A stretch of DNA of 64,000 bases from NCBI GenBank assembly GCA_016192825.1, contig JACPTK010000091.1, positions 8,382 through 72,381 of the forward strand, given 5' to 3'. This document shows positions 4,092-41,707 of this stretch, one piece after another. The first letter of the stretch is position 1. Each line of letters begins with the position of its first letter. The notes beneath the pieces are model-generated. The model made no database searches. It worked only from the letters and a program-made list of their open reading frames with translations, and was not told the DNA's origin. The DNA is from Betaproteobacteria bacterium. GTDB taxonomy: Bacteria > Pseudomonadota > Gammaproteobacteria > Burkholderiales > SG8-41. Position numbers and translations under genes: made by a program.

Positions 4092-4121
4092 CGTGATTCG
4101 TGAGTCGTGATTCGTGAATCG
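4092..4121. repeat. Heptamer tract CGTGATT/CGTGAGT x4 after the polA stop
   Basis: cgtgatt cgtgagt cgtgatt cgtgaat cg. Confidence 0.85.
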
Positions 4122-32194: not shown

Positions 32195-33181
32195 ATGAAG
32201 ATCGCGGTACTCGGCGCGGGCGCTTGGGGCACGTCGATCAGCATCAACCTGTGCGCGCGCCATCAGGTGCGGCTCTGGGCACGCGACGCGGCGCTGATCG
32301 AGGGGTTGCGCGCGCATCGGGCCAACGAGCGGTATCTCCCCGGCTTCAAGCTCCCGGACGCGCTTGCGCTCGACGAGGACCTCGGGACGGCGCTCGGGGG
32401 CGCTGAGCTGGTGCTCATCGCCGTCGTCACCAATGGCCTGCGCGACGTGCTGCAGCGCATCCGCGCGGCGGGGCCCGGCGCGCCTCTCGTCTGGTTGTGC
32501 AAGGGTTTCGAGAGCGGGCAGGCCAAGCTGCCGCACCAGATCTGCCTGGAGGAACTGGCTTCCGGCCCGCCGCGCGCGGTCCTGTCCGGGCCGAGCTTTG
32601 CGGAGGAGGTGGCGCGCGGGCTTCCCGCCGCGCTTGCCCTGGCTTCGACTGATCCCGCGTTCGCGCGCGACGCGGCACGCGCCCTGCACGGCGCCGCGCT
32701 GCGAATCTATCCGAGCGAGGACGTCGTCGGCGTGGAGGCGGCGGGCGCGGTGAAAAACGTCATGGCGATCGCGGCTGGCGTGAGCGACGGGCTGGAGCTG
32801 GGACTCTCCGCGCGCGCCGCGCTGATCACGCGCGGGCTCGCCGAGATGACGCGGCTCGGCGTGGCGCTCGGCGGGCGGGCGGAAACGTTCATGGGGCTCG
32901 CCGGCGCCGGCGATCTGATCCTCACCTGCACCGGCGATCTTTCCCGCAACCGCAGGGTGGGCCTCGCGCTTGGCCGTGGCCTGCCGCTCGCCGACGTGCT
33001 GGCCCGCCTCGGGCATACGGCGGAAGGCGTGCTGACCGCGCGCGCGGTGGCGGGTCTCGCCGGGAGGCTCGGGGTCGAGATGCCGATCACGCGGGCGGTG
33101 TGCCGCGTCCTGGACGACGTCCGCCAGGCACGCGCAGCGGTGCAGGAATTGCTCGCCCGCGAGCAAACGACCGAGTACTGA
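32195..33181 (+). CDS. gpsA: NAD(P)H-dependent glycerol-3-phosphate dehydrogenase
   Basis: GAGAWG, SGPSFA, KNVMAI, GDLILTC, SRN. Confidence 0.96.
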   Translation: MKIAVLGAGAWGTSISINLCARHQVRLWARDAALIEGLRAHRANERYLPGFKLPDALALDEDLGTALGGAELVLIAVVTNGLRDVLQRIRAAGPGAPLVWLCKGFESGQAKLPHQICLEELASGPPRAVLSGPSFAEEVARGLPAALALASTDPAFARDAARALHGAALRIYPSEDVVGVEAAGAVKNVMAIAAGVSDGLELGLSARAALITRGLAEMTRLGVALGGRAETFMGLAGAGDLILTCTGDLSRNRRVGLALGRGLPLADVLARLGHTAEGVLTARAVAGLAGRLGVEMPITRAVCRVLDDVRQARAAVQELLAREQTTEY

Positions 33182-33268
33182 GTACCGAGTGCTGAGTTCT
33201 GAGTGCCAGGTTGCTTGGTTCCCGTATGTAACTCAGCACTCAGCACTTAGCACTGGGCACTCGGCACT
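33171..33268. repeat. Inverted heptamer tracts CTGAGTN x5-6 / ACTCAGC x5 between convergent gpsA and trmL
   Basis: 33171-33212 and 33231-33268; the left arm contains the gpsA stop. Confidence 0.88.
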
Positions 33269-33281
33269 GTTTTTGCGGCGG

Positions 33282-33746
33282 TCAGCGGCCGCCGCGAAAA
33301 CCGAGCTGGCGCCAGGCTTCGTAGATCACGATGGCGACCGCGTTCGACAGATTGAGGCTGCGGCCGGCATTCCGCATCGGCAGGCGGATGCGCTGCCCGG
33401 GCGAGAATTCCGCCAGCACTTCGGCGGGCAGGCCGCGCGTCTCCGGGCCGAACACGAACACATCGTGCTCGCGGTAGCGCGGCGCGTCGTAGCGCCGCGC
33501 GCCGCGCGTCGTGACGGCAAACAGGCGCCGGCCTTCGAGCGCGGACCGGCACGCGCGCCAATCTTCGTGCTGCACGATTTCCGCAAAGTCGCGATAGTCC
33601 AGGCCTGCGCGCCGCAATAGCTTGTCGCGCAACGAGAAACCGAGCGGATGCACCAGGTGCATGCGACAACCGGCGTTCGCGCACAGGCGTATCGCGTTGC
33701 CGGTGTTGGGCGGAATCTCCGGCTCGAACAGCACGATTTCAAGCAT
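33282..33746 (-). CDS. trmL: tRNA (cytidine/uridine-34 2'-O)-methyltransferase
   Basis: PEIPPNTGN, RRAGLDY, FGPETRGLP, RSLNLSN. Confidence 0.95.
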   Translation of the reverse strand: MLEIVLFEPEIPPNTGNAIRLCANAGCRMHLVHPLGFSLRDKLLRRAGLDYRDFAEIVQHEDWRACRSALEGRRLFAVTTRGARRYDAPRYREHDVFVFGPETRGLPAEVLAEFSPGQRIRLPMRNAGRSLNLSNAVAIVIYEAWRQLGFRGGR

Positions 33747-33842
33747 ACGCAGGTTGCCGCGGGCGCCAAAACAAGATATCGTTATAGATCAAAGGCATGT
33801 AGCACAAAAATGAATCAGCCTCAAGCGCGGACGAAAGCCTGA

Positions 33843-35549
33843 ATGGGCCGGCCTGAAAAAGTCCGCCTCGGCGAGATACTCATCCAGCAGAAACTGCTGA
33901 CCGAGGAGCAGCTCAGGAGCGCTCTCGAGGAGCAGAAGAAGTCGGGCCGCCGCCTGGGCCGCGTGGTCATCGACAAGGGCTACGTCCCCGAGGAACAGAT
34001 CTCCCGGGCGCTCGCCCGCCAGCTCAACATCCCGTTCATCAGCCTCAAGCAATACAACACCAGGCGCGAGGTCGCCCTCAAGTTGCCGGAAACGCAGGCG
34101 CGCCGCTTCCGCGCGCTGGTGCTGGAGGATACCGGCCGGACCTGCCGGGTCGGCATGGCCGATCCGACCGATCTCCTGGCTTACGACGAGGTCGCGCGCG
34201 CCCTCAAGCGCGACATCGAGCTTGCGGTAGTCACGGAATCCGAGCTGCTGAGCACCATCGACCGCATCTACCGCCGCACCGAGCAGATCAGCGGGCTTGC
34301 CCAGGAGCTCGAAGCGGAGGTGGGAGAAGCCGCCGTGGTCGACTTTGGCGCACTGGCGCTGACGCCGGGCCTCGAGGAAGCCCCGGTGGTGAAACTGCTG
34401 CAGACGGTGTTCGAGGACGCGATACAGGCGCGCGCTTCCGACATCCACGTCGAGCCGCAGGAGAAGCGTCTCCACATCCGATTCCGCATCGACGGCGTGC
34501 TGCACCTGCAGACCGAGGCGGACGCCAAGATCGCCTCCGCCGTGGTGCTGCGGTTGAAGCTGATGTCGGGGCTCGACATTTCCGAGAAGCGGCTGCCGCA
34601 GGACGGGCGCTTCAACATCAAGGTGCGGAATACCCAAGTCGACGTGCGGATCTCGACCATGCCGGTCCAGTACGGCGAATCGGTGGTCATGCGGCTGCTT
34701 CACCAGGCGAGCGGAATGCTGGGACTCGACCGGATCGGGATGCCGGCCGGCATGCTCGCGAGACTGCGCGAGGTCATCCACCGTCCCAGCGGCATGGTGC
34801 TGGTGACCGGGCCCACCGGCAGCGGCAAGACGACAACGCTCTATGCGGCGCTCGGCGAGCTGAACACCTATGAGCGCAAGATCATCACCGTGGAAGACCC
34901 GGTGGAATACCGCCTGCCCGGAATCAACCAGGTGCAGGTCAACGAGAAGATCGAGCTCACCTTTGCCCGCGTGCTGCGCTCCGCCTTGCGCCAGGATCCC
35001 GACGTGATCCTGGTAGGCGAGATGCGCGACCCGGAGACGGTCGAGACCGGCTTGCGCGCGGCGATGACCGGCCACATGGTGTTCTCCACGCTGCACACGA
35101 ACGACGCGGTTTCCACGCCGGTGCGGCTGCTCGACATGGGCGCGCCGCGCTATATGGTAGCGCTGTCCCTGCATATGGTGATCGCGCAGCGGCTGCTGCG
35201 CGTCATCTGCGAGAGTTGCGCCACCGAACACTCGCTCTTGCCCAATGAGCGCGAATGGCTGCGCCTGGAGCTGGGAGACGGGGTGGACGGGCACCGCTAC
35301 AAGCGCGGCAAAGGGTGCACGCACTGCAATGCCACCGGCTACATGGGCCGCACCGGCATCTACGAGGTGCTGGAGATGACCGCCCCCGTGGTCGAGGCGG
35401 CGAACCAGGCGGATGTCCGGGAGTTCATGCGCGTTGCGCGCGGGCAAATCGGCGAAAACACGCTGCGGCGCCACGCCGCACAGCTGGTCGCGGCCGGCAC
35501 GACGTCGGTTGAGGAGGCGATGCGCATCTGCAATCAGTTTGAAGATTAG
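33843..35549 (+). CDS. mshE: MSHA extension ATPase with MshEN c-di-GMP-binding domain
   Basis: Tandem RLGEIL/RLGRVV MshEN motifs, GPTGSGKT, LRQDPD, tetracysteine motif. Confidence 0.93.
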   Translation: MGRPEKVRLGEILIQQKLLTEEQLRSALEEQKKSGRRLGRVVIDKGYVPEEQISRALARQLNIPFISLKQYNTRREVALKLPETQARRFRALVLEDTGRTCRVGMADPTDLLAYDEVARALKRDIELAVVTESELLSTIDRIYRRTEQISGLAQELEAEVGEAAVVDFGALALTPGLEEAPVVKLLQTVFEDAIQARASDIHVEPQEKRLHIRFRIDGVLHLQTEADAKIASAVVLRLKLMSGLDISEKRLPQDGRFNIKVRNTQVDVRISTMPVQYGESVVMRLLHQASGMLGLDRIGMPAGMLARLREVIHRPSGMVLVTGPTGSGKTTTLYAALGELNTYERKIITVEDPVEYRLPGINQVQVNEKIELTFARVLRSALRQDPDVILVGEMRDPETVETGLRAAMTGHMVFSTLHTNDAVSTPVRLLDMGAPRYMVALSLHMVIAQRLLRVICESCATEHSLLPNEREWLRLELGDGVDGHRYKRGKGCTHCNATGYMGRTGIYEVLEMTAPVVEAANQADVREFMRVARGQIGENTLRRHAAQLVAAGTTSVEEAMRICNQFED

Positions 35550-35582
35550 TTTCGAGTTGCGAGTTTCCAGTTTCGAGTCGCC
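35548..35582. repeat. Left heptamer arm AGTTTCG-type x5
   Basis: agtttcg agttgcg agtttcc agtttcg agtcgcc; begins inside the mshE stop codon. Confidence 0.85.
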
Positions 35583-35585
35583 AGA

Positions 35586-35974
35586 ATGGCCACAATCAAG
35601 CAGGTAGAAGAAATTCAGGCTTGGCAGAAGGCCAGGGTACTCTGTAAGCGTGTTTACTCGGTAACGAACGATGGTCGGTTTGCGAAAGATTTTGGGTTGC
35701 GCGACCAGATCCGGCGGGCAGCCGTTCGATTTTGTCCAATATTGCAGAGGGCTTCGAGAGAGGAGGCAGCAGAGAGTTTGTCCAATTTCTGGCGATTGCC
35801 AAGGGGTCCGCGGGCGAAGTTCGAGCCCAGCTCTACGTCGCGCTCGATCAGGTTTACGTGGGCCAACAAGAGTTCGATGAGTTGATCCGGGAAGTCGACG
35901 AAATCTCAAAGATGATCAATGGCCTAATTTCGTATCTCCGCGGCTCCGCCATAAAAGGTTCGCGGTTCAAGTGA
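35586..35974 (+). pseudogene. Four-helix-bundle protein (23S rRNA IVP / bAvd-like), split by a 1-nt deletion near 35726
   Basis: AWQKA...[13 protein letters not shown] in one frame and SNIAEGFER...[21 protein letters not shown] in the next. Adding one T (gtt tcg) gives a continuous 129-aa ORF. Confidence 0.88.
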
Positions 35975-35987
35975 CGGCGATGATTTT

Positions 35988-36021
35988 CCAACTCGAAACT
36001 CGAAACTCGAAACTGGAAACT
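35988..36021. repeat. Right heptamer arm CGAAACT-type x4-5
   Basis: ccaact cgaaact cgaaact cgaaact ggaaact; complementary to the left arm and immediately before the mshG RBS/start. Confidence 0.88.
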
Positions 36022-36027
36022 TGAGGC

Positions 36028-37257
36028 GTGCCGCACTTCGCCTACAAGGGCCGCGACAAGGGAGGACAACTCGTAGAAGGGGTGCTCGAAGGCCCCGACA
36101 GCGGTGCCGTGGCCGGGCAGCTGTCCGCGGGCGGAATCACCCCTGTCGAGATCAGGCCCACGCAGCCGCCGCCACGCGCAGGGCCCGGTCTGATCGAGCG
36201 GTTCAGCGAGGAGAAGATCGGGCATATCGAAGTCCTGCTCTTCTGCCGCCACATGTACACGCTGCTCAAGGCGGGCGTCCCCATCATGGGTGCATTGAAG
36301 GGGCTGCAGGAGTCCGCCGAGAACAAGGGGTTCGCGCGGGTGGTGCAGGATCTCCGCGAGAACCTCGACAGCGGGCACGAGCTGTCCGTCTGTCTCACGC
36401 GCCACCCCAAGGTGTTCGATCCGTTCTACGTGGCTATGGTGCGCGTGGGCGAGCTCACCGGCACGCTGGAAGAGGTGTTCCTGCGCCTGTTCAGCCACAT
36501 GGAATTCGAGAAGTTCATGCGCGACCAGGTCAAGTCGGCGGTGCGCTATCCGTCGTTCGTGGTCGCCACGATGGCGATCGCGATCGTGATCATCAACATC
36601 TTCGTGATACCGGCCTTCGCCAAGGTCTATCAGGGTTTCAAGACCGAGTTGCCGGCGATGACCCAGGCGCTGATCGCGTTCTCCAATTTCATGGTGGCCT
36701 GGTGGCCGCTGATGCTGGTGGCGCTGGCGGCGCTCGTGTTCGGATTCCGCCTCTACCTCGGCACGACGCGCGGGCGGCTGGCGTGGGACGAGCTCAAGAT
36801 GAAATTCCCGGTGGCGGGCCCGATCGTGCTCAAGGCCACGCTCGCCCGCTTCGCGCGCAGCTTCGCGCTCGCGATCCGCAGCGGCGTGCCGGCGGTGCAG
36901 GCGCTGACCATCGTCGCGAACACCGTGGACAACGTGCACGTGGCGCGCAAGATCGAGGCGATGCGCGAAGGCGTGGAGCGCGGCGAGTCGGTGCTGCGCA
37001 CCGCGGTGGCGACCGGCATCTTCACGCCGATCGTGCTGCAGATGGTGGCGGTGGGAGAGGAGACCGGCGCGCTCGACGAGCTGATGACCGAGATCGCCGA
37101 CATGTACCAGCGCGAGGTCGAGTACGACCTCAAGTCGCTCGCCTCGCAGATCGAGCCGATCCTGGTGGTGGGCCTCGGCGTGATGGTGCTGATCCTCGCG
37201 CTCGGCGTGTTCCTGCCGATCTGGGACCTCGGCACCGCGGCGCTGGGCAAGAAATAA
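36028..37257 (+). CDS. mshG: MSHA inner-membrane platform protein (GspF/PilC family)
   Basis: LLKAGVPI, GELTGTL, RYP, GEETGALD, IEP. Confidence 0.92.
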   Translation: MPHFAYKGRDKGGQLVEGVLEGPDSGAVAGQLSAGGITPVEIRPTQPPPRAGPGLIERFSEEKIGHIEVLLFCRHMYTLLKAGVPIMGALKGLQESAENKGFARVVQDLRENLDSGHELSVCLTRHPKVFDPFYVAMVRVGELTGTLEEVFLRLFSHMEFEKFMRDQVKSAVRYPSFVVATMAIAIVIINIFVIPAFAKVYQGFKTELPAMTQALIAFSNFMVAWWPLMLVALAALVFGFRLYLGTTRGRLAWDELKMKFPVAGPIVLKATLARFARSFALAIRSGVPAVQALTIVANTVDNVHVARKIEAMREGVERGESVLRTAVATGIFTPIVLQMVAVGEETGALDELMTEIADMYQREVEYDLKSLASQIEPILVVGLGVMVLILALGVFLPIWDLGTAALGKK

Positions 37258-37260
37258 GAC

Positions 37261-37850
<590 letters not shown>

Positions 37851-37932
37851 GCCGGCCGCAGGCGTATACTGGCACGGGTTTTGCTGCTGTTTCAAAGGGA
37901 TGCATACGATATTTCGTGAGAATTTTCACGAT

Positions 37933-38412
37933 ATGCGGGGATCGTCGAGTGCAAGGGGCTTCACACTCATCGAGTTGATCGTGGTGATCATCATCCTCAG
38001 CATACTGGCGGCGACCGCGCTGCCGCGCTTCGCCAACCTGCAGACGCAGGCGCGCATCGCGAAGTTGAACGGCGCGCTTGGCGCGATGAAGGGCGCCTCG
38101 GCGCTCGCGCACGCGGCCTGCCTCGCTTCGCAACCGCAGTGCACCGGCACGCAGCCGATGGAAGGCGTGAACGTCACGATGATCAATACCTATGCCACGG
38201 CCAATGCCGCGGGCATCGTTACGGCGGCCGGCCTGAGCGTTGGACCGACGTCACCGGATGGATGGGACGTGCAGGGAGGAGGGCCGGCGGCGGGGGACGT
38301 GCTGCGCCTGGTCGTGCTGGGCAACGACCCTGTCAACTGCAGTTTCACCTACACGGCGCCGGGGCTGGGCCAGGCGCCGGTGTTCAGCATCCTGGTGACC
38401 GCCGGTTGCTGA
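37933..38412 (+). CDS. MSHA-type pilin (MshA/B-like)
   Basis: RG|FTLIELIVVIIILSILAATALPRF. Confidence 0.85.
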   Translation: MRGSSSARGFTLIELIVVIIILSILAATALPRFANLQTQARIAKLNGALGAMKGASALAHAACLASQPQCTGTQPMEGVNVTMINTYATANAAGIVTAAGLSVGPTSPDGWDVQGGGPAAGDVLRLVVLGNDPVNCSFTYTAPGLGQAPVFSILVTAGC

Positions 38413-39574: not shown

Positions 39575-40274
39575 CTTCGGTCACGAGTCACGAGTCACGA
39601 GTCACGAGTCCCCAATAGCGAGTCGCGCGACGCAGCTGTCCATTCGGGCATTAACGAACCATTTGCCTACGGACTTCGACCGGGGACCCGGGACCCGGGA
39701 CCCGGGAGTGCGACAGCTTGGTCTGTCGCTGGTCGAGCAGATCGTTTTCATTGTCGTGGTCGGTGTCGCGGTGGCGGGGGTCCTTGCTGTCGTGAACGTC
39801 GCCACGCACGGCAGCGCGGATCCCATGATCCAGAAGCAGGCGGTGGCGATCGCAGAGGCACTGATAGAAGAAGTTCAGTTGCAGCCATTTACGTACTGCG
39901 ATCCCGATGATGCCAATGCTGCGACGGCGTTGAGCGCAGCGGACTGTACCGGAGGCGTCGGCGGCGCGAATGACGAGAACAAGCTGCCGCTGGGATCCGA
40001 GGCCGGTGAGACCCGGACCAGCGCGGCAACCCCGTTCGACAACGTCAGCGACTACAACAACTTCGGCATGGGGCCGGGATTCACTGACATTAACGGCAAT
40101 GCGATCTCCGGGCTCGACGCCTACTCGGCTACGGTGAGCATCACGAATCAGGCGCTCGGGACGATTCCATCGAGCGACGCGCTCCTGATCACCGTGTCGG
40201 TGACGGGCCCGGCGAACACGAGCGTCACGCTTCACGGCTACCGTGTGCGCTATGCGCCGAATGCGCTGCCATAA
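39561..40274 (+). CDS. mshD: MSHA minor pilin with a repeat-expanded leader
   Basis: G|LSLVE, SADPM, FDNVSDY, LHGYR; leader holds GTCACGA x4 (39580-39610) and GGGACCC x3 (39683-39703). Confidence 0.85.
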   Translation: MSIHNFGHESRVTSHESPIASRATQLSIRALTNHLPTDFDRGPGTRDPGVRQLGLSLVEQIVFIVVVGVAVAGVLAVVNVATHGSADPMIQKQAVAIAEALIEEVQLQPFTYCDPDDANAATALSAADCTGGVGGANDENKLPLGSEAGETRTSAATPFDNVSDYNNFGMGPGFTDINGNAISGLDAYSATVSITNQALGTIPSSDALLITVSVTGPANTSVTLHGYRVRYAPNALP

Positions 40275-41151
40275 ACGGAATTCAGTAATGCGACGGGAAT
40301 CGAGTCACGAGTCACGAGTCACGAGTCACCGCGCTCCTCGAGCGCGCGGGGTGACGCTGGTCGAGATGATCGTGGTGATCGCGATCACCGGCATCGTCGC
40401 GGCGGCAATCGCCATATTCGTCCGTAGTCCCGTAGAGGGTTACGTGGACGCCGCGCGGCGCGCGGAGCTGACCGACATCGCCGACACGGCGCTGCGCCGC
40501 ATTACCCGCGACCTGCGTACCGCGCTGCCGAACAGCATCCGCACCACCACTTCCGGCAACGTTCGCTACATCGAGTATCTCCAGACCAAGGGCGGTGGAC
40601 GCTATCGCGCGGACAAGGATTCGGGCGGGGCAGGATTCCCTCTCGACGTCACGGCGGCGATCTCCGATTTCGACGTCATCGGCACGATGCCGGCGCTCGC
40701 GAGCGGCGATTCGATCGTCATATACAACCTCACCGCCGACTCCGCCGTGCCCACCGGCAATGCCTATGCCGGCGACAATCGCGAGGCGTACTCCAGCAAT
40801 ACCGCGACGACCATCACGCTCGGCGCGGCCAAGCAATTTCCGTTCGCTTCGCCGGGCAAGCGTTTCCAGGTCGTGCAGTATCCCGTGACGTATTCATGCG
40901 ATCCCCTTCCGCTGGGAACGGGACAGTTGCGCCGCTATTGGGGCTATTCAATTGCAGCCGTCCAGCCCACGCCGCCCGCCGGGGGCAGCAACGCGCTGCT
41001 CGCGACCAACGTGTCCGATTGCAGCTTCTCCTACGACCCGGCCACCGGCGCGTCCGGGCGAACGGGCGTGGTGGCGCTGATCCTGCAGATCGAGCAAAGC
41101 GGCGAGAAGGTGCGGCTTTTCCAGCAGGTGCACGTCAGCAATGTTCCCTGA
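40261..41151 (+). CDS. mshO: MSHA minor pilin
   Basis: RG|VTLVEM, RDLRTALPNSIR, GGRYR, QVHVSNVP; leader holds CGAGTCA x4 (40301-40328). Confidence 0.88.
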   Translation: MRCHKRNSVMRRESSHESRVTSHRAPRARGVTLVEMIVVIAITGIVAAAIAIFVRSPVEGYVDAARRAELTDIADTALRRITRDLRTALPNSIRTTTSGNVRYIEYLQTKGGGRYRADKDSGGAGFPLDVTAAISDFDVIGTMPALASGDSIVIYNLTADSAVPTGNAYAGDNREAYSSNTATTITLGAAKQFPFASPGKRFQVVQYPVTYSCDPLPLGTGQLRRYWGYSIAAVQPTPPAGGSNALLATNVSDCSFSYDPATGASGRTGVVALILQIEQSGEKVRLFQQVHVSNVP

Positions 41152-41707
41152 CACGAGCCACGAGCCACGAGCCACGAGCCACGAGCCGCCACGCGCGCGC
41201 CGGCGCGCGGCAGGCGGCTTCAGCATCGTCACCGCCATCTTCCTCATCGTGGTGCTGGCCGCGCTGGGCGCGTTCATCGTCTCGGTGAGCGGGCTTCAGC
41301 AGTCGAGCAGCCAGCTCGATGTCCAGGGCGTACGCGCCTACCAGGCGGCGCGGGCGGGAATCGAATGGGCGGCGTATCAAGTGCTCGATCCCAACAACAA
41401 CCAGCCCGGTATTGGGGGAACGGACAATCTTCCGGCGTGTCCAGCGCCGACGACCACTCTTCCCAGCCTGGCCGGTTCGCTGTCGGTATTCACCGTAACG
41501 GTAACCTGCAGCGACAACGTAGGCGCCGGCGTCACGGAAGGAAACCGCAAGATCGCGACCTACGAAGTCGTGTCCACCGCCTGCAACCAATCACCATGCC
41601 CCAATCCCTCGCCCGGGACGGGTTATGTGGAACGCCGGTTGACCGCCGTTTTGAGCAAGTGCAAGGATCCGACCGCGGCGGCCCCGCGGTTCGCGTGCGG
41701 AGGATGA
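41141..41707 (+). CDS. mshP: MSHA minor pilin
   Basis: GG|FSIVTAIFLIVVLAALG, RAYQAARAGIEW, YVER; leader holds CACGAGC x5 (41152-41186). Confidence 0.88.
   Translation: MFPDTSHEPRATSHEPPRARRRAAGGFSIVTAIFLIVVLAALGAFIVSVSGLQQSSSQLDVQGVRAYQAARAGIEWAAYQVLDPNNNQPGIGGTDNLPACPAPTTTLPSLAGSLSVFTVTVTCSDNVGAGVTEGNRKIATYEVVSTACNQSPCPNPSPGTGYVERRLTAVLSKCKDPTAAAPRFACGG

Follow-up and report, generated by a model that had tools for sequence, protein, structure and literature searches.

A frameshifted four-helix-bundle gene between inverted heptamer arrays at a junction of an MSHA-like pilus operon

The window analysed here is a stretch of 64,000 nucleotides (nt) from a betaproteobacterial genome (contig JACPTK010000091.1, positions 8,382 to 72,381, forward strand), and all feature coordinates given below refer to it. 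Within an operon resembling that of the mannose-sensitive haemagglutinin (MSHA) pilus, the window holds a small cassette composed of a gene of the PF05635 four-helix-bundle family and two flanking inverted arrays of a 7-base word (heptamer). The cassette occupies the exact intercistronic spacer between the gene of an MshE-type ATPase and the gene of a GspF/PilC-type platform protein (Table 1). It is a DNA-level insertion, neither a fixed operon gene nor an artefact. Taken as a whole, the explanation towards which we lean is that it is a decaying copy of an insertion cassette similar to the intervening sequences (IVS) of rRNA genes, lodged in this case in an operon that is transcribed into mRNA. 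This IVS-like class of cassette is widespread, looks capable of movement and is under-described; its components are known individually.

Table 1. Coordinates of the cassette, its parts and the adjoining features in the window
Feature	Position	Strand	Evidence or remark
Upstream host gene, MshE-type ATPase of type IV pilus/type II secretion systems, 568 amino acids (aa)	33843..35549	+	PF00437 E=3.6e-133; PF05157 MshEN E=5.1e-18; NF053729 c-di-GMP motif
Left arm, a tandem array of about four heptamers (TTTCGAG, TTGCGAG, TTTCCAG, TTTCGAG)	35548..35578	+	inverted repeat, 31 nt
N-terminal part of the four-helix-bundle gene, ATG at 35586	35586..35725	+	PF05635 positions 1-52, 37.6 bits; aligns with orthologues through '...RRAAV'
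Frameshift zone, one base short of intact orthologues, gap at ~35726	35720..35733	+	MAFFT alignment with L024/L025 and protein alignment
C-terminal part of the four-helix-bundle gene, shifted frame, TGA at 35972-35974	35727..35974	+	PF05635 positions 39-106, 79.1 bits; TIGR02436, 80.5 bits
Right arm, CTCGAAA x3 and CTGGAAA; the period-7 array extends over 35989-36024	35991..36021	+	inverted repeat, 31 nt
Downstream host gene including the GAGG ribosome-binding site, GspF/PilC-type platform protein, 409 aa	36022..37257	+	PF00482 E=1.9e-53, two stretches
Asymmetric element without a gene, heptamers of the cassette's family	37263..37357	+	between the platform gene and the first pilin gene

Insertion at the ATPase/platform junction

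The cassette was first noticed in a reading of the sequence alone (hereafter the sequence-only reading); the observation itself is confirmed, and the interpretation that accompanied it is partly supported. The boundaries described there agree with our coordinates: the first bases of the left arm overlap the TAG stop codon of the ATPase gene, starting from its 'AG' at 35548, and the 3' end of the right arm, at 36021, lies just ahead of the ribosome-binding site of the platform gene (GAGG, 36022-36025; GTG start at 36028). The cassette is also discrete in composition and richer in AT, as had been claimed, with a GC content of 51.9% vs 66.0% in each flanking gene and a GC content at third codon positions (GC3) of 0.61-0.64 vs 0.88-0.92 in the flanking genes.

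The platform-gene locus was taken from 60 relatives, in 25 of which the ATPase/platform junction could be read. The junction is empty in 13 of the 25, with 2-32 nt between the two genes, and several of the empty junctions (e.g. loci L012, L013 and L036) have a GCCGG-containing spacer in common. Full four-helix-bundle cassettes, representing at least four lineages, are present in five relatives, truncated cassettes or solo-arm scars in five more, and other inserts in two. Given the 13 empty junctions, the cassette is not a fixed member of the operon, a point on which the sequence-only reading had proposed just this comparison.

The cassette type of the window, with TTTCGAG arms, recurs in L024 and L025, with 79% nucleotide identity in cassette and flanks alike. 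Between L011 and L009, by comparison, the flanks are 82-86% identical and the cassette 63% (arm word of L011, GTTTGAA), and between L016 and L009 the flanks are 80-82% identical and the cassette 58% (arm words of L016, GTCGCGA/GACCCGC). The cassette of L026 and the remnant in L010 belong to a different protein subfamily, with TCAGCGN arms. In the tree of the flanking proteins, the window locus is sister to L010 (SH-aLRT support 95), which carries this remnant of the other subfamily; the next clade joins the empty site L012 to L011 with its third cassette type (97), while L024 and L025 group apart from these (100), in a clade that also contains two solo-arm scars. This pattern is explained far better by independent gains into an ancestrally tight junction than by one gain followed by many precise losses. 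Being empty, filled by four cassette lineages or scarred in close relatives, the junction offers an unusually clean natural experiment.

Some of the occupied junctions have structures of their own. In L024/L025, a further copy of the right arm stands behind the cassette, along with 18 nt from the start of the platform gene, and ahead of the cassette the final 6 nt of the ATPase gene are duplicated; it seems that this cassette either arrived with scraps of donor flanks or landed beside a resident solo arm. In L029 (genome G019), heptamer arms of the AAAAGGC/AAAAATC family surround about 150 nt in which no PF05635 similarity was recognised by eye; this core is either some other cargo or one that has decayed heavily.

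One could ask whether the gene belongs permanently to the MSHA-like pilus operon or benefits the host there, for example as a small regulator of pilus assembly. Eight of the ten intact cassettes of the window subfamily (clade A) in the genus sample do lie in this operon, four at the ATPase/platform junction and four at the junction between homologues of the open reading frames (ORFs) 40243-41151 and 41141-41707. Such a role is nonetheless very improbable, considering the empty junctions, the presence of at least four unrelated cassette lineages at the same spot and the frameshift in the window copy. Moreover, of the 80 subfamily loci sampled across phyla, only 2 have pilus genes nearby, one of these being from the same genus, and the thyA/folA junction is colonised as often, with repeat elements in 16 of 29 loci and 11 empty (L195 left out). 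The special link to pilus operons was downgraded to a genus-local pattern that does not extend across phyla, and we read these data as a sign of dense colonisation of tight operon junctions in the genus, rather than of a pilus function. Related cassettes were also seen directly downstream of other GspE/PilB-type ATPase paralogues, in L104 (G018) and in L164 (a Rhodocyclaceae metagenome-assembled genome, MAG), where the ATPases are 41% and 33% identical to that of the window; together with a single case among 79 loci of the cross-phylum sample, these are compatible with chance.

Heptamer arms and protein subfamilies

The two arms are complementary at 28 of 31 nt (90%) and are spaced 412 nt apart. 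A two-unit heptamer pattern, searched with up to two mismatches, matched 12 times in the window against 0.37 expected, a number reached by none of 100 shuffles. The description of the arms as complementary and heptameric is therefore upheld.

Arms of this kind are a general companion of the gene. Inverted arms made of tandem repeats enclose all seven PF05635 loci of the genome, and the word differs from locus to locus. In the genus sample (the 60 relatives and this genome), arm pairs scoring at least 16 were present in 61 of the 77 scored loci, with repeat periods mostly of 7 but also of 8 and 14-16, and the period class tracks the protein tree, changing 7 times among 57 labelled rows. Periods of 14-16 or 8 were observed in the clades of L084, L105, L089, L095, L064, L083, L107, L086, L091, L090 and L063, and of L101, L078, L106, L073, L068 and L072; CGTGAC-containing 15-mers are an example of these other periods, which likewise follow the protein clade.

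Clade A, characterised by the motif SNIAEGFE, was scanned for in one genome per species. Among the matches listed, it has at least 594 encoded relatives across many phyla, with 50-66% protein identity between phyla. In the cross-phylum sample, 73 of the 79 loci with both flanks present have arms scoring above the best of 79 shuffled controls, and the period is 7 in 54 of these 73. Read inward, the left-arm unit includes GTT in 42 of 53 loci, vs 2 of 53 for the other strand, and the clade-A consensus of the left arm, GTT[TC][CA][AG][AG], is oriented towards the gene. Within the genus sample, an oriented word of the GTT type is found in 8 of 9 clade-A cassettes vs 2 of 35 cassettes of other clades, which favour TGA-containing words (16/35). 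Conservation of an oriented arm word at 50-66% protein identity implies a constraint on the word itself and not merely on complementarity. Since arm word and protein subfamily are conserved jointly across phyla, each subfamily would be predicted to bind its own heptamer array.

Two other accounts of the words were rejected. Derivation of the heptamer from the target site is contradicted by the fact that the arm word tracks the protein subfamily and not the site. That the arms serve, as a general rule, to place stop codons in all frames fits poorly with their distribution, since an inward-strand stop occurs in 42 of 61 left arms of the genus but in 27 of 73 of the clade-A cross-phylum sample, and the word of the window contains none.

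The four-helix-bundle gene and its frameshift

The window copy does not form one uninterrupted reading frame of about 110-130 aa; its two halves lie in different frames. Both halves exceed the cut-offs of PF05635 (33.8 bits) and of TIGR02436 (24 bits), the scores against the latter being 30.3 and 80.5 bits, so the profile check that the sequence-only reading had called for came out in favour of the family. For comparison, the intact orthologue L040 reaches 131.5 bits over positions 1-106 of PF05635.

A nucleotide alignment with two intact positional orthologues (L024 and L025, from other species of the same genus) revealed a single 1-nt gap in the window copy, at which an 8-base stretch is unusually divergent. 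When the protein was aligned with ten intact relatives, no other defect was found on either side of the shift. The earlier claim of one missing T near 35726 is thus borne out as to the gap; the loss of a T from a T run (GTT-CG) is plausible, but the exact missing base cannot be assigned. Judged by these alignments, the window copy is a broken, decaying cassette gene. Decay is common in this genome, given that three of the six other PF05635 copies are truncated or contain a stop (contigs C90, C99 and C56). Near full-length, uninterrupted matches are found on C60, C64 and C86, and hence the proposal that the window copy is the best example of the full form of the element holds within the window only.

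It might be argued that the gene is functional in the window, the frameshift being an assembly or consensus error or being bypassed by programmed -1 frameshifting. The halves do align well with intact orthologues, with no further stops beyond the single shift, and four DNA runs of one study contain 98-99% of the sampled window words and are possibly the source data themselves. We regard this as rather improbable, as the ten intact clade-A orthologues (10/10) are in a single frame, inspection of 35713-35733 by eye showed no slippery site, the 8 bases following the gap are unusually divergent, and the truncated or stop-bearing copies on C90, C99 and C56 attest to decay elsewhere in the genome.

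The intact genes of the relatives have ratios of nonsynonymous to synonymous substitution rates (dN/dS) of 0.05-0.19 in 7/14 pairs with unsaturated dS. These estimates indicate that the intact genes are under purifying selection, i.e. that they encode a real, selected protein. The subfamily profile matches the structures 2gsc (five chains on record, E=4.8e-23) and 2rld (E=7.5e-07), a link by sequence alone. No transposase domain was present among the profile matches of the cassette gene, and a PADLOC defence-family search of three intact homologues yielded no match.

Gene-less arrays in the genome

The genome holds hundreds of arrays without a gene; 926 arrays of period 7 were counted genome-wide vs 78 of period 8. 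Strict period-7 arrays lie within 600 nt of 6 of the 7 four-helix-bundle genes, vs 1 of the 8 Y1-transposase genes and 1 of the 3 reverse transcriptase (RT) genes, the background being 17.7% of random 1.5-kb windows. With 71 arrays, GTGACTC is the commonest array word, and the arms of the cassette on C86 are built from it. The word of the window cassette forms only two arrays in the genome, and since its gene is also broken, this copy is probably inert.

Across genomes, arrays of the form GTTYNRR have a median of 163 in those with a clade-A gene (n=10) vs 9 in those without (n=25; one-sided Mann-Whitney p=0.007, kin not being independent). An arms-only hairpin with the words of the window (TTTCGAG/TTGCGAG ... 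CTGGAAA/CTCGAAA) was seen at the thyA/folA junction L189 of genome G024, which also carries an intact cassette of the window type.

The hundreds of gene-less arrays could suggest elements comparable to repetitive extragenic palindrome doublets (REPINs) or to MITEs (miniature inverted-repeat transposable elements), moved by a separate enzyme such as a Y1 transposase associated with such repeats (RAYT), an insertion sequence transposase or a reverse transcriptase, with the four-helix-bundle gene as a passenger. The genome does encode 8 Y1_Tnp and 3 RT matches, and five genomes in which no clade-A gene was detected are rich in GTTYNRR arrays. Such an arrangement appears quite unlikely to us: the frequency of strict arrays near Y1 and RT genes is at background, in contrast to that near the four-helix-bundle genes, the arm word goes with the subfamily of the four-helix-bundle protein across phyla, and the gene is under purifying selection.

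A wider proposal, possible but put forward tentatively, is that PF05635 proteins act in trans as the recognition factor for a widespread, undescribed class of prokaryotic mobile elements that comprises both gene-bearing cassettes and gene-less hairpins and whose ends are oriented, subfamily-specific heptamer arrays. If true, it would account for the heptamer repeats long known to be in excess in bacterial genomes, and also for how ORF-bearing rRNA IVS arose. A single cause might underlie three oddities, namely ORF-bearing rRNA IVS, the unexplained intergenic heptamer excess and the existence of a large four-helix-bundle family that has solved structures but no known function outside diversity-generating retroelements (DGRs). 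There is a consequence for annotation as well, because cassettes and hairpins that lie inside operons and abut stop and start codons risk being annotated as operon genes or terminators, or dismissed as assembly noise.

Proposed course of events and the question of RNA pairing

According to the explanation that we favour, the IVS-like unit would consist of the PF05635 gene and two inverted arrays of its subfamily-specific 7-base word oriented towards the gene. It entered the ATPase/platform spacer at the DNA level, and arms and gene are inherited together. With no promoter-like site found inside it, the cassette would be read from the operon transcript. As established for the IVS of Coxiella, the stem of about 30 bp would be a likely substrate of RNase III, for which the genome encodes a homologue (rnc), and its cleavage would make the insertion tolerable between cistrons. 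Finally, the small protein would most likely recognise its own heptamer arrays, helping the cassette and gene-less hairpins to persist or spread. Recognition is suggested by the combination of an oriented, subfamily-specific word, purifying selection on the gene, gene-less hairpins of the same word family and the larger number of arrays in genomes with a clade-A gene.

Several results weigh against this course of events. The arm stem closes the minimum-free-energy RNA fold of 35535-36035, but the fold of the whole molecule has a z-score of only -1.4, i.e. it is not better than that of shuffled sequences. No direct repeat or target-site duplication is visible flanking the arms at the window site, and no known nuclease or recombinase fold was found for the four-helix-bundle protein. 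Shared ancestry could be part of the reason why a clade keeps one arm word. The five genomes without a detectable clade-A gene (MAGs 85-93% complete) hold 158-782 GTTYNRR matches. Among cassettes with co-directional neighbours, 6 of 28 are antisense to them, although the co-orientation of the other 22 of 28 counts in favour. Lastly, the mismatches between arms show no preference for pairs that could form G·U in RNA: on the gene strand, 52 G:T vs 72 A:C were counted in the 61 arm pairs of the genus sample and 63 vs 55 in the 73 arm pairs of the cross-phylum sample, or 115 vs 127 when pooled.

Given the lack of a G·U preference, complementarity is apparently kept at the DNA level. Selection for arm pairing at the RNA level is not supported by these counts, and it looks as if RNA pairing were a consequence rather than a selected property. 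If the wider proposal is true, the missing bias would mean that copying or correction of the arrays takes place on DNA, arm against arm. The sequence-only reading had proposed that the arms pair in the mRNA and loop out the gene. Part of this stands, in that the predicted fold closes with the stem; the mismatch counts give it no support, a scan of 33000-38000 against Rfam found neither rRNA nor any other family (two chance-level matches to miRNA models, far below the gathering score, fell on a neighbouring hairpin), and looping-out is not established.

A purely RNA-level mRNA intervening sequence would be one with arms that serve to base-pair in the mRNA, with excision of the cassette by RNase III and with no selection on the arrays other than for pairing as RNA; it is weighed here on the same data. 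It would agree with the predicted closing stem of 31 nt and 90% complementarity, with the presence of rnc and with the prevalence of co-oriented cassettes. It would further agree with the homologous IVS of Coxiella, which, according to PMC4990558, carries a tandem run of three heptamers in its 5' arm, at the first of which RNase III cuts. This cleavage makes RNase III processing of the operon transcript the obvious analogy, and excision of the window cassette as in the 23S rRNA IVS would be an extension of it. We nevertheless hold a purely RNA-level element to be unlikely, because G·U mismatches do not exceed A:C ones, both the sequence and the orientation of the arm word are conserved across phyla, and not complementarity alone, some cassettes are antisense to their operon, and no Rfam family is matched.

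Comparison with known systems

The S23p/IVS proteins and their inverted repeats have already been described, and in the account of PMC4990558 heptamers are noted once, in Coxiella. The closest known relatives of the cassette are therefore the ORF-bearing 23S rRNA IVS of Coxiella burnetii (S23p), and of Leptospira and Xanthomonas as cited in PMC4990558, which encode the same protein family as the window cassette. Both have terminal inverted repeats that form a stem of about 28-31 bp around the PF05635 ORF, tandem heptamers in the 5' arm just ahead of the start codon (GACAGAT x3 in Coxiella), and a similar size of about 430-470 nt. They differ in that the window cassette lies between two protein-coding cistrons and not in helix 45 of the rRNA, that RNase III cutting, described for the Coxiella IVS, would apply to the window cassette by analogy, that the arm word of the window is subfamily-specific and common to several phyla, and that gene-less derivatives of the cassette occupy many intergenic spacers.

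A second likeness is to the REPtron/REPIN system (PMC3116915), in which a small gene between inverted repeats is accompanied by gene-less hairpin copies dispersed in intergenic regions. Similarly, the commonest array word of our genome, GTGACTC, also forms the arms of the gene-bearing C86 cassette. However, the cassette gene encodes a four-helix bundle, whereas that of the REPtron encodes a RAYT, a Y1 transposase; the cassette arms are tandem arrays of 7-base units (sometimes 8 or 14-16) instead of one palindrome; and the Y1 genes of this genome are not linked to arrays (1/8).

The accessory protein Avd (bAvd) of DGRs is homologous to PF05635 according to PMC10053308, and it belongs to a homologous fold family; L040 has a weak bAvd-like match of 29 bits, below the 40-bit cut-off. 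Unlike in DGRs, no RT is adjacent to the window cassette, the three RT matches of the genome lying on contigs C78, C84 and C93 and the window on C79.

Over-represented intergenic heptamers have been reported twice in terms that recall the gene-less arrays, as GGGAATC in Xanthomonas, with 70-75 convergent pairs (PMC4692102), and as TAACTGA in Beggiatoaceae (PMC4679880). Both are abundant intergenic tandem heptamers that often form inverted pairs. The main texts of these two papers draw no link to the four-helix-bundle family, as the terms 'four-helix' or 'four helix', 'intervening sequence' and '23S' have 0 occurrences there. In a full-text search of the literature, with supplements and most subscription journals outside its scope, we found no paper that ties PF05635 genes to heptamer-array arms as a general rule.

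Operon context and further arrays in the window

Downstream of the platform gene are several pilin-like genes with N-terminal methylation motifs and the gene of a 1198-aa DUF6701 protein, which make 'MSHA-like pilus operon' a fair label. The platform gene itself may be called mshG by inference only, since every match of its product to the NCBIfam PilC/GspF models falls under the model cut-off.

The gene-less element that lies after the platform gene, ahead of the first pilin gene, consists of TTGCGAG x2.5 on its left and of CTGGAAA x4 and CTCGAAA x2 on its right (about 6.5 units on that side). Its interpretation as a stable RNA hairpin was rejected, its fold being no better than those of shuffled sequences (z -0.14). 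In many relatives, the same platform/pilin junction harbours arms-only elements, whose words are very diverse; at least seven relatives have it empty.

Further arrays lie elsewhere in the window. A heptamer-armed hairpin of the CTGAGTA / CTCAGCA family follows the gpsA stop at 33170-33255, between convergent genes, and it is here that chance-level matches to Rfam mir-2319, far below threshold, were obtained. Complementary heptamer arrays of the TCACGAA / TTCGTGA family at 1292-1319 and 4092-4121, 2.8 kb apart and oriented away from one another, may be the ends of separate elements or the brackets of a larger segment. A solo array, CACGAGC x5, stands at 41150-41189, directly after the TGA stop of ORF 40243-41151, at the junction where L053, L055, L061 and L085 carry intact clade-A cassettes.

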